From: Escherichia coli
GTDB lineage: Bacteria; Pseudomonadota; Gammaproteobacteria; Enterobacterales; Enterobacteriaceae
NCBI RefSeq assembly: GCF_003334385.1
Contig: NZ_QOWN01000011.1
DNA: 64,000 bases
Reading direction: 5' to 3' (one strand)
The position numbers and the translations under genes were made by a program. Positions 966 through 7,213 of this stretch are shown one piece after another. The stretch's first letter is position 1. Every line of letters starts with the position of its first letter. The notes beneath the pieces are model-generated. The model worked only from the letters and a program-made list of their open reading frames with translations, was not told where the DNA came from and made no database searches.

Positions 966-3380
966 TCACCCCGCAAACTGCCTGAACAGCGCCTTACCCT
1001 TAACCAGTCGCGCACCCAGCCAGCCGCCGAAAAGCGACAGCAGCAGCGCTCCGCTGCACGGCAGAACAATCCACAATCGCCAGTCTGGCTCCCACGGAAA
1101 ATCAAACACTTTCGCCTGCAACACTGCCAGCGCCGTTTCCGCACCAATTGCGGCCACCAGGCCGGAAACAAACCCAAGCATGGCGAACTCACACCACAAC
1201 GTGGTACGCAGCAGTTTTTTCCCCGCACCGAGTGTGCGCCACACCACCAGCTCCTGATGACGCTGACGCATTCCCACCTGCACCTGTGCCAGCAACAGCA
1301 ACATACCGCAGGCGGTGACCAGTACCACCATCACTTCCAGCGCCCGACTTACCTGCTCCAGCACCTGACCGACCTGTTTTAAAATCGCGCCAATATCTAA
1401 CAGGCTAATGGTCGGGAACTGGCGGTTGAGTTGTGTCAACATGCCGTTGCCATTCTCCCAGCGGAAACTGGTAAGCCAGCTCTGCGGTTGCCCGTCTAAT
1501 GCCCCTTCAGGGAAAATAAAATAGAAATTAGGCCGCAGACTTTCCCAGTCCACTTTGCGCAGGCTGGTCACTTTAGCGCGGAACTCCTGGGTATCGCCCA
1601 TAAAAGTCACGGTATCACCGAGGGCAACGTTTAAGCGTTTCGCCAGCCCCTCTTCCATCGACACTTCATCGGCTTTTGGCGGCCAGTTACCGGCGACAAT
1701 CGGATTATGATCGGGCCGCGTATTTTGCCAGGTAAGATTGAGTTCGCGGTTAAGCGCCTCATCTTCATTACCTTCTGTCGGCTTATCGTTAATCGCCGTC
1801 AGCCGCGCCCGCACCACCGGATAAAACGATTCCGGGACTATCTGATGTTCCGCAAGGAACGCTTTTAGCGGTGCTACCTGTTCTGTGGCGATGTTAATTA
1901 AAAAGTAGTTCGGGCTTTCTGGAGGTAGCTGCTGCTGCCAGCGGTCGAGCAGATCGCCACGCAACACCAGCAGCAGTGCCAGCAGCATAAAGGAGAGCGA
2001 AAATGCCGAAAGCTGACTTAACGTTGACCACGGCTGACGTAACAGGCGGCTAACCGCCAGGCGCAGAGGCAGCGATTTCAGCGTCATGCGGCGAAGTACA
2101 TTCAGCAGCATCCAGCCCAGCACACCGCACAGCAAAGCCAGTACTACCGCGCCCGCCAGCACCGCCCAAAGCAGCATGCTGCCACCCATTAATCCGGCGA
2201 GCAGCAGCACAACCACCACACTGACAATCGGCAGATAAAACTTCAGCGGCCAGACGTTCGCTACCACATCATTACGTAATACGCGTAAAGGCTGCGTTGC
2301 CAGCAACAAGCGATATGGTCGTAGCCCCACCAGCAGCGAGATGACCGTCATGGTGCCAAGCGCCCACAGCCACGGCCAGAGGCTGGCTGGCGGTAGTGCA
2401 GCAGGCAGAACGGGCTTGAGCAGCACCATCAACACGTTTTCGAACAACAGGCCTATGGCCCCACCGGTAACGGCTGAAAGCGTCAGCACCATCAACCACT
2501 GACCGACGATTAGCTTACGCAGTTGCGCTCGCCCTGCCCCCAGCGTTTTGAGGATCGCCACCAGATCGTAGCGACTGCGACAGTAATGATTCATCGCTAC
2601 CGCCACCGCTGCCACTGCCAGCAGCAAGGTCAGAAGCGCCGAAAGCAGCAGGAACTGTTGCGAGCGTTCCATCGATCGCCCCAGCGCGCCTTCGTCCTGT
2701 TCCAGACCGTACCAGCGTTGTTCGGGTTTAAGCTGAGGTAACAACCATTTCTCATAGCCGTCGAGCTGGTTCTCGTTGCCGCCGAATTTATAACGCCAGG
2801 TGACCCGACTCCCCGGCTGCACGGCTCCGGTTTTATCGACATCCGCCAGATTCATCATCAGACGCGGAGCCATCTGGAAGGGGTTAAAACCGGAATCCGG
2901 TTCCTGAATCACTTCTCCGGCAATCCGCAAGGTGGCATCGCCCACGTCAATGGTGTCGCCCGTTTTCAGGTTAAGCAGTGCCATCAGGCGTGGGGCCAGC
3001 AATACGCTGCCCGCCTGCGGTTTCAGGCCAGGGGGATTAGTTTGCAGATCGCCATACATCGGGTAGATATCATCCACCGCTTTGACGTTCGCCAGCTGCG
3101 GTGTGTCGCCTGCAAAGGTCATTGTGGCGAAAGTCAGCTGCTTGCCGACTTTCAGGCCGCGCTTTTGCGCTTCCTCCAGCCACGCTTGCGGCACTTCGCG
3201 TGAACTGCGCAACGCCCGATCGCCCGCCATAAACTCACGGCTTTGCTGGCTTAAGCCCTTCTCCATGCGATCGCTGATATTGCCCAGCGCCAGCACGCAG
3301 GCCACCGCCAGGCTTAGCGCCAGCCAGACAATTAATAGCGACGGCGAACGCCATTCGCGCCAGAACCAACGTGCAATCAT
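966..3380 (-). CDS. ybbP: ABC transporter permease with two FtsX-type domains (MacB/LolCE-like), 804 aa
   Basis: 804-aa ORF; multiple hydrophobic segments with large extracytoplasmic loops; start overlaps ybbA stop by 4 bp (operon). Confidence 0.9.
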   Translation of the reverse strand: MIARWFWREWRSPSLLIVWLALSLAVACVLALGNISDRMEKGLSQQSREFMAGDRALRSSREVPQAWLEEAQKRGLKVGKQLTFATMTFAGDTPQLANVKAVDDIYPMYGDLQTNPPGLKPQAGSVLLAPRLMALLNLKTGDTIDVGDATLRIAGEVIQEPDSGFNPFQMAPRLMMNLADVDKTGAVQPGSRVTWRYKFGGNENQLDGYEKWLLPQLKPEQRWYGLEQDEGALGRSMERSQQFLLLSALLTLLLAVAAVAVAMNHYCRSRYDLVAILKTLGAGRAQLRKLIVGQWLMVLTLSAVTGGAIGLLFENVLMVLLKPVLPAALPPASLWPWLWALGTMTVISLLVGLRPYRLLLATQPLRVLRNDVVANVWPLKFYLPIVSVVVVLLLAGLMGGSMLLWAVLAGAVVLALLCGVLGWMLLNVLRRMTLKSLPLRLAVSRLLRQPWSTLSQLSAFSLSFMLLALLLVLRGDLLDRWQQQLPPESPNYFLINIATEQVAPLKAFLAEHQIVPESFYPVVRARLTAINDKPTEGNEDEALNRELNLTWQNTRPDHNPIVAGNWPPKADEVSMEEGLAKRLNVALGDTVTFMGDTQEFRAKVTSLRKVDWESLRPNFYFIFPEGALDGQPQSWLTSFRWENGNGMLTQLNRQFPTISLLDIGAILKQVGQVLEQVSRALEVMVVLVTACGMLLLLAQVQVGMRQRHQELVVWRTLGAGKKLLRTTLWCEFAMLGFVSGLVAAIGAETALAVLQAKVFDFPWEPDWRLWIVLPCSGALLLSLFGGWLGARLVKGKALFRQFAG

Positions 3381-4063
3381 GCTTCCTCCTGCAACTGCCC
3401 GTTCACCAGCCGTAAGCAGCGGTCGCAGCGTGCCGCCAGTTGCAGGTCGTGGGTCACCATAATCAACGTGGTGCCATGTTCACGGTTGAGGGAAAACAGC
3501 AGGTCGGCAATTTTATCGCCCGTCTGGCGGTCAAGGTTGCCGGTGGGTTCGTCGGCAAACAGCACATCAGGTCGACCATTAAAGGCTCGTGCCAGCGCCA
3601 CTCGTTGCTGTTCACCGCCGGAAAGCTGTGCCGGAAGATGATCCAGACGTTTACCCAGCCCTAACTGTTCGAGCAACGCTTTCGCCCCGTTACGACTTTC
3701 CGCGCTACTCTCACCGCGCAGCAGAGCCGGAAGCTCGACGTTTTCCAGCGCGTTAAGGGTAGGAATTAACATAAATGACTGAAAAACAAAGCCGACGTGC
3801 TTCGCGCGCAACTTTGCCCGCGCTTCTTCGTCCATATTATGTAGCGGTTGTCCCACCAGACTCACTTCGCCACTGCTGCCGTCATCAAGCCCGGCGAGGA
3901 TCGCCAGCAAGGTTGACTTACCCGATCCCGACTCGCCCACCAGTGCGATGGTCTCGCCACGTTTGACAACCAGCTCAACTCCGGTGAGGATGGAGAGTTC
4001 ATGCTCCCCCTGACCGACGGACTTCTTAAGATGATGAACTTCAACAATGTTTTCCGCTGGCAT
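3377..4063 (-). CDS. ybbA: ABC transporter ATP-binding protein, 228 aa
   Basis: Walker A GESGSGKST, ABC signature LSGGEQQR, Walker B LFADEPTGNLD; 5' end overlaps tesA 5' end divergently. Confidence 0.92.
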   Translation of the reverse strand: MPAENIVEVHHLKKSVGQGEHELSILTGVELVVKRGETIALVGESGSGKSTLLAILAGLDDGSSGEVSLVGQPLHNMDEEARAKLRAKHVGFVFQSFMLIPTLNALENVELPALLRGESSAESRNGAKALLEQLGLGKRLDHLPAQLSGGEQQRVALARAFNGRPDVLFADEPTGNLDRQTGDKIADLLFSLNREHGTTLIMVTHDLQLAARCDRCLRLVNGQLQEEA

Positions 4064-4657
4064 TTGCCCTTCCTGTTCCTGGTCCTGTTAACCTTCCGTG
4101 CCGCCGCAGCGGACACGTTATTGATTCTGGGTGATAGCCTGAGCGCCGGGTATCGAATGTCTGCCAGCGCGGCCTGGCCTGCCTTGTTGAATGATAAGTG
4201 GCAGAGTAAAACGTCGGTAGTTAATGCCAGCATCAGCGGCGACACCTCGCAACAAGGACTGGCGCGCCTTCCGGCTCTGCTGAAACAGCATCAGCCGCGT
4301 TGGGTGCTGGTTGAACTGGGCGGCAATGACGGTTTGCGTGGTTTTCAGCCACAGCAAACCGAGCAAACGCTGCGCCAGATTTTGCAGGATGTCAAAGCCG
4401 CCAACGCTGAACCATTGTTAATGCAAATACGTCTGCCTGCAAACTATGGTCGCCGTTATAATGAAGCCTTTAGCGCCATTTACCCCAAACTCGCCAAAGA
4501 GTTTGATGTTCCGCTGCTGCCCTTTTTTATGGAAGAGGTCTACCTCAAGCCACAATGGATGCAGGATGACGGTATTCATCCCAACCGCGACGCCCAGCCG
4601 TTTATTGCCGACTGGATGGCGAAGCAGTTGCAGCCTTTAGTAAATCATGACTCATAA
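4031..4657 (+). CDS. tesA: Periplasmic acyl-CoA thioesterase I / lysophospholipase L1 (SGNH hydrolase), 208 aa
   Basis: Start taken at MMNFNNVFRWHLPFLFLVLL (signal peptide) within track ORF 4001..4657; GDSLSAGY SGNH motif. Confidence 0.9.
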   Translation: MMNFNNVFRWHLPFLFLVLLTFRAAAADTLLILGDSLSAGYRMSASAAWPALLNDKWQSKTSVVNASISGDTSQQGLARLPALLKQHQPRWVLVELGGNDGLRGFQPQQTEQTLRQILQDVKAANAEPLLMQIRLPANYGRRYNEAFSAIYPKLAKEFDVPLLPFFMEEVYLKPQWMQDDGIHPNRDAQPFIADWMAKQLQPLVNHDS

Positions 4658-5456
4658 AGCAACGGAGATCCTGACAGGTAAAGTTATGCAAAAATCGGTC
4701 TTAATTACCGGATGTTCCAGTGGAATTGGCCTGGAAAGCGCGCTCGAATTAAAACGCCAGGGTTTTCATGTGCTGGCAGGTTGCCGGAAACCGGATGATG
4801 TTGAGCGCATGAACAGCATGGGATTTACCGGCGTGTTGATCGATCTGGATTCACCAGAAAGTGTTGATCGCGCAGCCGACGAGGTGATCGCCCTGACCGA
4901 TAATTGTCTGTATGGGATCTTTAACAATGCCGGATTCGGCATGTATGGCCCCCTTTCCACCATCAGCCGTGCGCAGATGGAACAGCAGTTTTCCGCCAAC
5001 TTTTTCGGCGCACACCAGCTCACCATGCGCCTGTTACCCGCGATGTTACCGCACGGTGAAGGGCGTATTGTGATGACATCATCGGTGATGGGATTAATCT
5101 CCACGCCGGGTCGTGGCGCTTACGCGGCCAGTAAATATGCGCTGGAGGCGTGGTCAGACGCACTGCGCATGGAGCTGCGCCACAGCGGAATTAAAGTCAG
5201 CCTGATCGAACCCGGTCCCATTCGTACTCGCTTCACCGACAACGTCAACCAGACGCAAAGTGATAAACCAGTCGAAAATCCCGGCATCGCCGCCCGCTTT
5301 ACGTTGGGACCGGAAGCGGTGGTGGACAAAGTACGCCATGCTTTTATTAGCGAGAAGCCGAAGATGCGCTATCCGGTGACGCTGGTGACCTGGGCGGTAA
5401 TGGTGCTTAAGCGCCTGCTGCCGGGGCGCGTGATGGACAAAATATTGCAGGGGTGA
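4647..5456 (+). CDS. ybbO: Short-chain dehydrogenase/reductase (NAD(P)-dependent), 269 aa
   Basis: ORF with TGCSSGIG Rossmann motif and YxxxK catalytic motif (YAASK); overlaps tesA 3' end by 11 bp. Confidence 0.9.
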   Translation: MTHKATEILTGKVMQKSVLITGCSSGIGLESALELKRQGFHVLAGCRKPDDVERMNSMGFTGVLIDLDSPESVDRAADEVIALTDNCLYGIFNNAGFGMYGPLSTISRAQMEQQFSANFFGAHQLTMRLLPAMLPHGEGRIVMTSSVMGLISTPGRGAYAASKYALEAWSDALRMELRHSGIKVSLIEPGPIRTRFTDNVNQTQSDKPVENPGIAARFTLGPEAVVDKVRHAFISEKPKMRYPVTLVTWAVMVLKRLLPGRVMDKILQG

Positions 5457-5474: not shown

Positions 5475-6371
<897 letters not shown>

Positions 6372-6402
6372 TATTCCGTTGATCGGCACATGAACCACAA
6401 CG

Positions 6403-6428
6403 CCGGATGCGATGCTGCGCATCCGGCA
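6403..6428. terminator. REP-like GC-rich hairpin between convergent cnoX and fetB
   Basis: gccggatgcgatgctgcgcatccggc inverted repeat in the 62-bp gap between convergent stop codons. Confidence 0.6.
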
Positions 6429-6433
6429 TCGCA

Positions 6434-7213
6434 TCATTTCTTCTTCAATTGCGTCACCACCAACTGGTGGCGCGAATTATAAAACTTACGATAGGTTAAA
6501 TAGCAGGCAATAATGGTCGACAAGCTGGCGGTTGAGAGCAGCATAAAGGTCACCATAATCTGATATTTAATCGCCTTCACCGGATCAATCCCGGCAAATA
6601 TCAGCCCGGACATCATTCCTGGTAAACTCACTAAGCCAACCGTTTTTGCTGAATCGACCGTCGGAATTAAAGCCGCGCGAATACTGTCGCGAATCAATAT
6701 CGCTGAAGCCTGCTTCGGCGTCGCACCAAGACTCAGTTTCTCCTGAATCTGTTGCTGTTCGCTAATGACCCGTTGCCCTAAATTGTTGTAACACAACCCC
6801 ACCGCTACCATGGCGTTACCGGCAATCATCCCGGCGATAGGGATCACCTGCATCGGGATAAATTCAATCGACCCTGAGAGAATCAGCACCGCCAGGGTAA
6901 TTCCCGCCCCGACCGTAATGGCAATAAACGATGAGATAAAAGCTTTAGCAATATATTTACTGCGTTTTTGCGCGTTCCACGCCGCATTAAAGCAGATAAA
7001 TAACACCATCAATAATGTCAGGCTGGCATCATCCACGCTGAAAATATACTTCAGCACATAGCCGACAATAATCAGCTGAATTATCGCTCGCCCGACGCTC
7101 CAGAGAATATCTTTCTCCAGCGCCAGTTTTTCTTTATGGCTAATTAAGATTGCCACCACCACCAGCATTAATGCCAGTGCTAATGATTCGTTAGTAATAT
7201 TATGCGAGTTCAT
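6434..7213 (-). CDS. fetB: Iron-export ABC transporter permease (UPF0014 family), 259 aa
   Basis: Start taken at MNSHNITNESLALALMLVV within track ORF 6434..7240; hydrophobic throughout; overlaps fetA 3' end by 14 bp. Confidence 0.88.
   Translation of the reverse strand: MNSHNITNESLALALMLVVVAILISHKEKLALEKDILWSVGRAIIQLIIVGYVLKYIFSVDDASLTLLMVLFICFNAAWNAQKRSKYIAKAFISSFIAITVGAGITLAVLILSGSIEFIPMQVIPIAGMIAGNAMVAVGLCYNNLGQRVISEQQQIQEKLSLGATPKQASAILIRDSIRAALIPTVDSAKTVGLVSLPGMMSGLIFAGIDPVKAIKYQIMVTFMLLSTASLSTIIACYLTYRKFYNSRHQLVVTQLKKK

Follow-up and report, generated by a model that had tools for sequence, protein, structure and literature searches.

Why should the gene for a periplasmic lipid-acting hydrolase begin on the strand opposite the first codons of an ABC transporter ATPase, are the two products functionally coupled, and does the shared start region do anything of its own? 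We considered these questions for the E. coli chromosomal ybbP-ybbA / tesA-ybbO locus, as represented in a window of 64,000 nucleotides (contig NZ_QOWN01000011.1). Of 5426 complete E. coli genomes, 5416 carry the central part of the locus, positions 3300–4800, at 95–100% identity. The genes of the locus are as follows:

966..3380, minus strand: ybbP, ORF for an 804-aa permease of a Type VII (MacB/FtsX-type) ABC transporter, two FtsX domains in one chain
3377..4063, minus strand: ybbA, ORF for a 228-aa ABC ATPase
4031..4657, plus strand: tesA, 208-aa precursor of the periplasmic thioesterase I / protease I / lysophospholipase L1, an SGNH hydrolase
4031..4108, plus strand: TesA signal peptide, 26 aa, MMNFNNVFRWHLPFLFLVLLTFRAAA, with the mature start at A27 (4109), from the translation and the starts of the solved chains
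4647..5456, plus strand: ybbO (RefSeq name), ORF for an NADP-dependent aldehyde reductase (SDR), following tesA and codirectional with it

Gene products and the YbbAP-TesA complex

YbbP scores 1458 bits against the NCBIfam equivalog NF041854 ABC_perm_YbbP (cut-off 999) and matches chain A of PDB 9GE6, 9GE7 and 9GE8 over its full length (residues 1–804, E = 0). Two copies of the Pfam FtsX domain (PF02687), at residues 247–363 and 683–793 of a single chain, confirm together with the ORF what an earlier note on this DNA had described as an 804-aa permease with two FtsX-type domains. The Pfam MacB_PCD domain is absent from the matches of E. coli YbbP and is found in one homologue (L084, PF12704). 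YbbA reaches 479 bits against its own equivalog NF007879 (cut-off 336), with LolD, MacB, DevA and FtsE as the runner-up models, and these NCBIfam scores place its ATPase in the LolD/MacB/FtsE clade; the ybbA stop and the ybbP start share 4 nt (ATGA, 3377–3380). On the other strand, the ybbO product matches NF005950 (537 bits, alignment from residue 14), which like the models of the other three genes is exceeded beyond its cut-off, and its annotated start overlaps the end of tesA by 11 nt.

TesA (413 bits against NF007819, cut-off 270) displays the SGNH block I GDS with the nucleophile Ser, the block III GxND and the block V DxxH dyad, and G34, D35, S36, G97, N99, D100, D180 and H183 are unvarying in an alignment of 41 sequences, whose homologues are 35–69% identical to the E. 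coli protein. Its N-terminus has the features of a Sec signal peptide, namely a charged n-region (R9), a hydrophobic core and an AAA-A junction, and every solved TesA chain begins at precursor residue 26–28: PDB 1IVN and 9GE8_T align from residue 27, with 9GE8 chain T covering 27–208 (E = 3e-121).

The earlier note had suggested that so tight a pairing of an extractor-type ABC transporter with the SGNH hydrolase TesA reflects a coupled lipid-handling module, and had proposed co-purification of TesA with YbbAP as a check. This transporter-lipase coupling is real and has already been published (McAndrew et al., PLoS Biol 2025, PMC12646458), co-purification of YbbAP-TesA included. According to that paper, TesA ranked first among 534 periplasmic proteins in AlphaFold co-folding with YbbP, and residues of YbbP and TesA coevolve. 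CryoEM showed a YbbA:YbbP:TesA complex of 2:1:1, in which both YbbP periplasmic domains are present and the active site of TesA is turned toward the transporter. The paper also describes assays of esterase and thioesterase activity, together with TesA active-site mutants, and reports that TesA alone, without added YbbAP, restores in vivo esterase activity; the transporter is therefore not needed for catalysis on soluble substrates. It reports no distinctive deletion phenotype, proposes a lysophospholipid or acyl-CoA as the substrate, derives extraction from the membrane from structures and simulations and mechanotransmission from apo and AMP-PNP cryoEM states, and notes that the tesA-ybbO operon partly overlaps ybbA-ybbP, with a similar arrangement in P. 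aeruginosa.

Taken as a whole, the locus is, we are confident, best explained as the YbbAP-TesA system, encoded by divergent operons with a start region that is dual-coded in enterobacteria. Among the Type VII (MacB-like) ABC transporters of E. coli, YbbAP-TesA is the fourth; two YbbA ATPases supply the energy for YbbP, whose single chain forms a pseudo-symmetric permease of 10 helices and two periplasmic domains. TesA, in the periplasm, docks between these domains with its Ser36/Asp180/His183 active site toward the transporter, and ATP binding and hydrolysis would be converted into the long-range movements of mechanotransmission. We infer extraction from the membrane as a step of this cycle, and likewise the natural substrate. 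The operons ybbA-ybbP and tesA-ybbO diverge, and in Enterobacterales the first 10–11 codons of both are read, one set per strand, from a common stretch of 30–33 nt; each operon's ribosome-binding site and promoter would therefore lie in the coding sequence of the other, and the transcripts would overlap at their 5' ends.

The system constitutes a new functional type of ABC machine, which would feed membrane lipids to a docked hydrolase, and it accounts for the periplasmic location of a 'thioesterase' long used in fatty-acid engineering. That system-level insight was published in 2025, and the present analysis adds nothing to it at that level. What we add concerns the start region: the dual-coding constraint on its 30–33 nt, the classes into which start-codon spacing falls among 80 genomes, and the evidence that the enterobacterial overlap is derived, none of which is found in the available text of McAndrew et al. 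(PMC12646458).

The shared start region of ybbA and tesA

The annotated K-12 start of tesA (MMNFNN..) is the ATG at 4031, in an ORF that is itself open from 4001 to 4657 (+), and with this start the coding overlap with ybbA spans 4031–4063. The 33 bp that the earlier note gave for the overlap of the ybbA start (4063, minus strand) and the tesA start (4031, plus strand) are thus borne out by the ORFs, the sequence and the MG1655 coordinates, in which the same overlap appears (tesA 519139–519765, ybbA 519733–520419). An alternative start at the second ATG, 4034 (207 aa), which RefSeq/PGAP uses in another strain, shortens the overlap to 30 nt. The reading frames run antisense to each other with their codons in register: CAT-CAT, coding for YbbA His10-His11, reads ATG-ATG on the tesA strand, and the ybbA ATG is likewise the antisense of the TesA His11 codon. 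Two elements define the region:

4031..4063, both strands: dual-coding segment, TesA residues 1–11 (plus) and YbbA residues 1–11 (minus), antisense and in codon register
4071..4074, minus strand: ybbA Shine-Dalgarno AGGA, within tesA codons 14–15 (Phe-Leu), 7 nt before the ATG

The ybbA start is the sole in-frame ATG near the conserved N-terminus, with the AGGA ahead of it. Of the 19 Enterobacterales loci with a 30–33-nt overlap, 17 keep this AGGA, at a distance of 7 nt or, in L009, 3 nt (L017 is without it), and its counterpart on the tesA strand, TTCCT, is seen in most aligned sequences. The tesA starts at 4031/4034 are preceded by a weak Shine-Dalgarno only (GGA at 9–12 nt). A further in-frame ATG at 4001, with a good GGAG Shine-Dalgarno and a 218-aa TesA, was rejected: in L002, L013 and L014 the frame is blocked upstream, and the third-position variability of ybbA codons 12–21 is ordinary (0.97 bit), which also disfavours it.

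We compared the third-codon-position entropy inside and outside the overlap in an alignment of 17 Enterobacterales, across which 4031–4063 is near-unvarying. In ybbA, the entropy is 0.27 bit over codons 2–11 versus 1.27 bit over codons 12–200 (Mann-Whitney p = 6e-7), and none of the 179 other ten-codon windows is as low; in tesA, it is 0.33 bit over codons 1–11 versus 1.51 bit in the mature part (p = 1e-7). Synonymous-site variability is thus lowered 4–5-fold in both genes, with sharp edges at the start codons 4031 and 4063. As judged from this pattern of constraint, the overlap is truly dual-coding and more than an accident of annotation.

The contrary reading, that the overlap is an annotation artefact and tesA really starts downstream (e.g., at the TTG at 4064, just after the ybbA start codon, so that the genes merely abut), draws on the weak Shine-Dalgarno ahead of 4031/4034, on the cleavage of the signal peptide, which makes the mature N-terminus (residue 27) uninformative on the tesA start, and on the presence of TTG 4064 in several Enterobacteriaceae and of abutting starts as the common state outside Enterobacterales. 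However, it leaves the 4–5-fold stronger constraint on synonymous sites in ybbA codons 2–11 than in the rest of the gene unexplained, and this constraint stops exactly at the tesA ATG, with the would-be 5'UTR unaffected. All 17 aligned Enterobacterales retain an ATG at 4034 or next to it at 4031; TTG 4064, by contrast, is missing in L003, L010, L013–L017 and L037, and a start there would leave the signal peptide without its positively charged n-region. We accordingly regard an artefact as highly improbable.

To see how far the arrangement extends, we surveyed the neighborhoods of 80 genomes from several orders that hold a TesA relative, with ybbP sought downstream by tblastn. One distant homologue (P0247) lies on a 2.5-kb contig, which is too short to reveal its upstream neighbours. 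ybbA is head-to-head with tesA in every one of the 80 loci, and ybbP was detected downstream in 78; in Massilia (L072), the ybbA-tesA pair is present and no recognisable YbbP was found downstream by tblastn and NCBIfam. The start codons overlap by at least 30 nt in 19 loci, all of them from Enterobacterales; they abut (−3 to +8 nt) in 31, are separated by a 10–16-nt spacer in 13 and by longer spacers in 17. The earlier note had made much depend on conservation of the overlap outside E. coli, and it is indeed kept at 30–33 nt across Enterobacterales. This length is a trait of that order: in other Gammaproteobacteria, the usual state is abutment of the two start codons, for the most part in a shared CATG, or a gap of 10–16 nt, and the starts are within 16 nt of each other in 44 of the 61 non-enterobacterial loci. 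Among the lineages that keep the pair, the extremes are a 78-nt overlap and a 535-nt spacer (+78 to −535 nt); since the spacing varies in this way, the overlap as such is not essential to the YbbAP-TesA system.

On these comparisons of spacing, the enterobacterial overlap looks derived. Relative to other Gammaproteobacteria, the Enterobacterales would have undergone a 1-nt phase change in which the CATG-type ATG was lost, with tesA now starting at the ATGs antisense to YbbA His10/His11. The residual value of the analysis lies here, in an overlap that is dual-coding and kept across Enterobacterales and in an abutment of start codons that is widespread in Gammaproteobacteria.

Promoters, transcripts and possible roles of the overlap

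Because of the gene geometry, the transcription start of tesA would fall in ybbA or ybbP coding sequence and that of ybbA in tesA or ybbO; the earlier claim that each promoter must sit within the other gene's coding sequence holds in this form, i.e., with ybbA/ybbP as host for the tesA promoter and tesA/ybbO for that of ybbA. The promoter positions themselves, like any regulatory role of the overlap, are inferred; the candidate sites are as follows:

3963..3991, plus strand: candidate sigma-70 promoter of tesA, TTGACA-17 nt-GAGGAT, in ybbA codons 25–34, predicted start ~3998
4405, minus (ybbA) strand: weak Cappable-seq TSS, 342 nt inside tesA, the nearest upstream of ybbA

A strict promoter/terminator scan of 3600–4500 recovered no promoter-like site. 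In a laxer PWM scan, the candidate tesA promoter scores 9.49, against 9.11 for the 90th percentile of the best site per 350 nt of the window, and in the ybbA direction nothing in 4050–4400 rises above the background median; neither scan found a strong consensus promoter for either direction. The TTGACA of the candidate is kept in 14 of 17 Enterobacterales (TCGACA in the remaining 3), and the synonymous third positions of YbbA V32 and V33, which lie within it, are unvarying in all 17. A text search of the literature for a named tesA promoter gave nothing relevant.

The Cappable-seq site was placed at 4405 by the offset of +776 from U00096.2 to U00096.3 together with the MG1655 coordinates. Among the plus-strand sites up to 1.09 Mb in the Cappable-seq supplement (PMC4782308), it is listed at U00096.2 518615(+) with a score of 2.45, and the next plus-strand TSS does not come before 523635. 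The position fits a TTGCAG-17-AACAAT in E. coli. We do not accept it as an established ybbA promoter: it is weak, and that -10 is not conserved in other genera.

What the overlap does, if anything, can be read in several ways. The two functionally linked operons may simply have undergone neutral compaction, with the periplasmic protein-protein contact as their sole functional coupling and no regulatory role for the overlap, a reading that we find quite plausible while leaning slightly against it. The range from a 78-nt overlap to a 535-nt spacer in lineages that all keep the pair is consistent with it, as are the weakness of the ybbA-strand TSS, the divergence of its -10 between genera and the failure of both scans to find a strong shared promoter element. 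On the other hand, neutrality sits uneasily with adjacency and divergent orientation in 80 of 80 genomes from several orders, with starts no more than 16 nt apart in 44 of 61 non-enterobacterial loci, closer together than a pair of independent promoter regions would call for, and with the overlapping transcripts seen in RNA-seq: the ExcludonFinder study (NAR 2025, PMC12288877) lists tesA-ybbA among 16 divergent excludons of MG1655, detected in at least 50% of 58 RNA-seq samples.

That listing speaks for an excludon, in which RNA polymerases running toward each other and the cutting of the paired 5' regions by RNase III would render tesA-ybbO and ybbAP mutually antagonistic, and thereby set or switch the ratio of free to transporter-bound TesA; by geometry, any RNA made from one operon is necessarily antisense to the beginning of the opposite operon's coding sequence. 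However, the products form a stoichiometric complex, for which co-expression rather than exclusion is expected, and the validation in PMC12288877 is of excludons as a class and not of the tesA-ybbA pair. We hold such antagonism to be unlikely.

A more speculative proposal, to which we give distinctly little credence, is that selection, and not compaction alone, has made the abutting or overlapping starts (the shared CATG in many Gammaproteobacteria and the 30–33 dual-coded nt in Enterobacterales) into a means of coupling. In this view the two 5' ends necessarily pair as antisense, the ribosome-binding site of either gene being buried in the first codons of its partner, and this pairing might set the ratio of free to docked TesA, possibly in response to, for example, envelope or lysophospholipid stress.

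Relation to known systems

The proteins and locus in the window are the same as those of the YbbAP-TesA complex of E. coli K-12 (PDB 9GE6, 9GE7, 9GE8). A closely related system is LolCDE-LolA, a Type VII ABC lipoprotein extractor, which shares the MacB/FtsX-type fold and a LolD-like ATPase and, as proposed for YbbAP-TesA, works by mechanotransmission and delivers an acylated substrate out of the inner membrane to a partner in the periplasm (PMC12646458). In our searches, YbbA scores 254 bits against the LolD model, short of the LolD equivalog cut-offs. Unlike the LolC/LolE heterodimer, YbbP is one fused, pseudo-dimeric chain of 10 helices. The partners also differ (PMC12646458): LolA is a chaperone that carries the substrate, whereas TesA is a hydrolase that destroys it, and their folds and binding modes are unrelated. 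BceAB-BceS resembles YbbAP in its 10-helix, single-chain FtsX-type permease with a similarly placed lipid-binding pocket; in contrast to YbbP, BceB has no counterpart of the first periplasmic domain, and its partner is a histidine kinase in the membrane, not a periplasmic esterase (PMC12646458). In genomic terms, the locus resembles the divergent excludons, in which head-to-head genes have overlapping 5' transcription and among which ExcludonFinder lists tesA-ybbA. It departs from the usual members of that class in that both genes have coding sequence within the overlap and in that the products, rather than being functionally opposed, are partners in one complex.

Gene layout and geometry of the ybbA/tesA overlap

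The window is chromosomal E. coli DNA. Its positions 3300–4800 are carried at 95–100% identity by 5416 of 5426 complete E. coli genomes, where they are annotated as ybbP, ybbA, tesA and ybbO, and all four genes pass the curated cut-offs of their NCBIfam equivalog models. As the earlier note had it, YbbP is an 804-aa protein with two FtsX-type domains: the ORF has this length, Pfam recovers two FtsX domains, and PDB chains 9GE6, 9GE7 and 9GE8 cover all 804 residues (E = 0). The mature part of TesA (residues 27–208) aligns with PDB 1IVN and 9GE8_T (E about 1e-121).

Genes of the locus (window coordinates)
966..3380, minus strand: ybbP, ORF of 804 aa
3377..4063, minus strand: ybbA, ORF of 228 aa
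4001..4657, plus strand: tesA ORF, with the K-12 start at ATG 4031
4647..5456, plus strand: ybbO, ORF

The ybbA stop and ybbP start share ATGA at 3377-3380 (minus strand), an arrangement typical of translationally coupled genes. On the other side, the annotated ybbO start (ATG 4647) runs over the final 11 nt of tesA; since the NCBIfam SDR model aligns with ybbO only from residue 14, a Met codon at ~4686, this later ATG may be the real start.

With the K-12 start of tesA (MMNFNN.., ATG 4031), tesA and ybbA have 33 nt in common (4031–4063), as in MG1655 and as noted earlier, and with the PGAP start one codon later (4034) they share 30 nt. Read from the sequence, the two frames run antisense to each other in codon register: the tesA ATG-ATG is complementary to the YbbA His10-His11 codons, and the ybbA ATG to the TesA His11 codon. 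The ybbA Shine-Dalgarno (AGGA, 7 nt upstream) falls within tesA codons 14–15. By this geometry, any transcription start of either operon lies in the coding sequence of the other, in agreement with the proposal that each promoter sits inside the opposite gene.

Dual-coding constraint and the tesA start

The TesA protein is uninformative on its own start codon because the signal peptide is removed and the solved chains start at residue 27; therefore, we turned to the dual-coding constraint, measured as third-codon-position entropy in 17 Enterobacterales that range from Citrobacter to Providencia and Photorhabdus. In ybbA this entropy is 0.27 bit for codons 2–11 versus 1.27 bit for codons 12–200 (Mann-Whitney p = 6e-7), and all 179 other ten-codon windows have higher values; in tesA it is 0.33 bit for codons 1–11 versus 1.51 bit for the mature part (p = 1e-7). 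The edges of the constrained stretch are the two start codons themselves.

A tesA start at the in-frame ATG 4001, 30 nt upstream of the annotated one, was considered and rejected. This ATG, the antisense of YbbA His21, is found in many Enterobacteriaceae and has a better Shine-Dalgarno than the annotated start (GGAG with 5-nt spacing, window 3991-4003); the ORF from it is closed at three of the loci with TesA relatives (L002, L013 and L014), and 4001–4030 is unconstrained. As the constraint is bounded by both start codons and the upstream start is not conserved as an ORF, the comparison supports the annotated overlap, of 30 or 33 nt, as real. Three loci (L007, L009 and L010) have only the second tesA ATG, and Photorhabdus only the first. 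At the level of sequence comparison, we regard selection on the overlap as confirmed.

Start-codon spacing across genomes and the likely origin of the overlap

From an exhaustive representative search, 41 TesA homologues were aligned and the alignment used to scan one genome per species; 584 of 600 pattern matches were confirmed, and the best 80 of these 584 loci, from Gammaproteobacteria of many orders and one Massilia, were examined. All 80 have a ybbA homologue as the immediate upstream neighbour of tesA, on the other strand, which, along with overlaps of at least 30 nt in 19 Enterobacterales loci, answers the co-conservation check that the earlier note had proposed. By tblastn, ybbP lies downstream of ybbA in 78 of the 80, the exceptions being L041 (at a contig edge) and L072.

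Spacing of the ybbA and tesA starts in the best 80 of 584 loci (start codons were assigned by heuristics, so single values are less certain than classes)
Overlap of at least 30 nt: 19/80, all Enterobacterales, mostly 30 or 33 nt
Abutting starts, −3 to +8 nt: 31/80
Spacers of 10–16 nt: 13/80, with the Pseudomonas sequence CATGGAGAATCCGATG
Spacers of 23–109 nt: 14/80
Spacers >200 nt: 3/80

Abutting starts, which share the palindrome CATG in 20 of the 31 loci, include those of Vibrionaceae, Psychromonas, Rheinheimera, Dokdonella, Cycloclasticus, Marinobacterium, Nitrincola and several MAGs. An anchor distance that does not depend on start calls, taken between the YbbA residue-7 codon and the codon for the Gly of the GDS motif in TesA, is 85–88 nt (≡1 mod 3) in Enterobacterales and 86–89 nt (≡2 mod 3) in Vibrionaceae. 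Because the distance is similar and the phase is different, the enterobacterial overlap looks derived. Where CATG has G, Enterobacterales have T, A or C after CAT. We posit that their lineage lost the abutting tesA ATG and that the start would have moved 30–33 nt further upstream, to the complement of the YbbA His-His codons.

Several loci depart from these layouts. The conserved Pseudomonas sequence (e.g., L043 and L048, ~4985-5005) offers two in-frame tesA ATGs as possible starts, the first sharing CATG with the ybbA start and the second preceded by a GGAG belonging to the first codons. Pectobacterium zantedeschiae (L012, about 4950-5100) has a 45–48-nt insertion within the overlap, which extends the predicted YbbA N-terminus by 15 aa, lengthens that of TesA too, and gives an overlap of 51–78 nt according to the tesA start chosen. 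In Vibrio mexicanus (L024, ~4990-5010), the ATG in the ybbA-start CATG is not in the reading frame of the GDS motif (anchor distance 90), and an in-frame tesA ATG is absent, which may reflect a frameshift or an assembly error. Massilia glaciei (L072, 1000-4300) keeps the ybbA-tesA pair with no YbbP recognisable downstream by tblastn or NCBIfam; its permease may have diverged strongly, or the operon may be disrupted. A ybbO-like SDR follows tesA in Enterobacterales and some Vibrionaceae (41–42% identity in L019, L022 and L023, from Photobacterium and Salinivibrio, about 5600-6460), most other loci being without it. In a public read assembly (L084, 5001-6344), a more distant relative, a 447-aa protein with two GDSL/SGNH domains in tandem, is placed head-to-head with an ABC ATPase (35 nt apart by gene calls) and a MacB_PCD/FtsX permease of 839 aa; this is a fused-hydrolase variant of the module.

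Candidate embedded promoters and the published YbbAP-TesA system

A strict scan of 3600–4500 returned no consensus promoter. A PWM scan gave one above-background candidate for tesA (score 9.49 versus a 90th percentile of 9.11):

3963–3968 and 3986–3991, plus strand: TTGACA, 17-nt spacer, GAGGAT, candidate tesA promoter

Its perfect −35 lies inside ybbA codons 32–34 and its −10 is weak (form xAxxAT). Of the 17 Enterobacterales, 14 have TTGACA here and three have TCGACA; the two Val codons inside the hexamer (YbbA Val32 and Val33) show no variation at their synonymous third positions. The stretch 3963-3991 is a candidate embedded tesA promoter. For the ybbA strand, we take the U00096 version offset to be +776. 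The nearest Cappable-seq site then converts to window ~4405, 342 nt inside tesA, with a −10 that lacks conservation between genera; in the available part of that published table the ybbA-strand sites are all weak. Of the 16 divergent excludons that ExcludonFinder reports for MG1655 (PMC12288877), tesA-ybbA is one, seen in half or more of 58 RNA-seq samples. The overlap could possibly reflect antagonistic 'excludon' control of the two partners' expression, a setting of the ratio between them, or neutral compaction.

The coupled lipid-handling module proposed in the earlier note is supported, yet it is already in the literature, mention of the overlap included. According to McAndrew et al. (PLoS Biol 2025, PMC12646458; preprint May 2025), AlphaFold co-folding of YbbP with 534 periplasmic proteins made TesA stand out, YbbP and TesA coevolve, and tesA-ybbO 'partially overlaps' ybbA-ybbP, with a similar layout in P. 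aeruginosa. The complex was co-purified, as the earlier note had suggested doing, and cryoEM gave structures of apo YbbAP, AMP-PNP YbbAP and YbbAP-TesA (2:1:1), in which YbbP shows 10 helices and a pair of Porter/Sabre periplasmic domains, with TesA between these, its active site facing the transporter. Esterase and thioesterase activity was measured and Ser36, Asp35, Asn99, Asp180 and His183 confirmed; the same paper reports no distinctive phenotype on deletion. Its authors propose that lysophospholipids or other hydrophobic esters are extracted from the inner membrane by ATP power and then hydrolysed, with the extraction step and natural substrate still to be demonstrated. Essentially all that the earlier note had proposed was already done there; added here, as details of a known system, are the evidence for dual coding, the way start-codon spacing is distributed across 80 genomes, and the candidate embedded tesA promoter.
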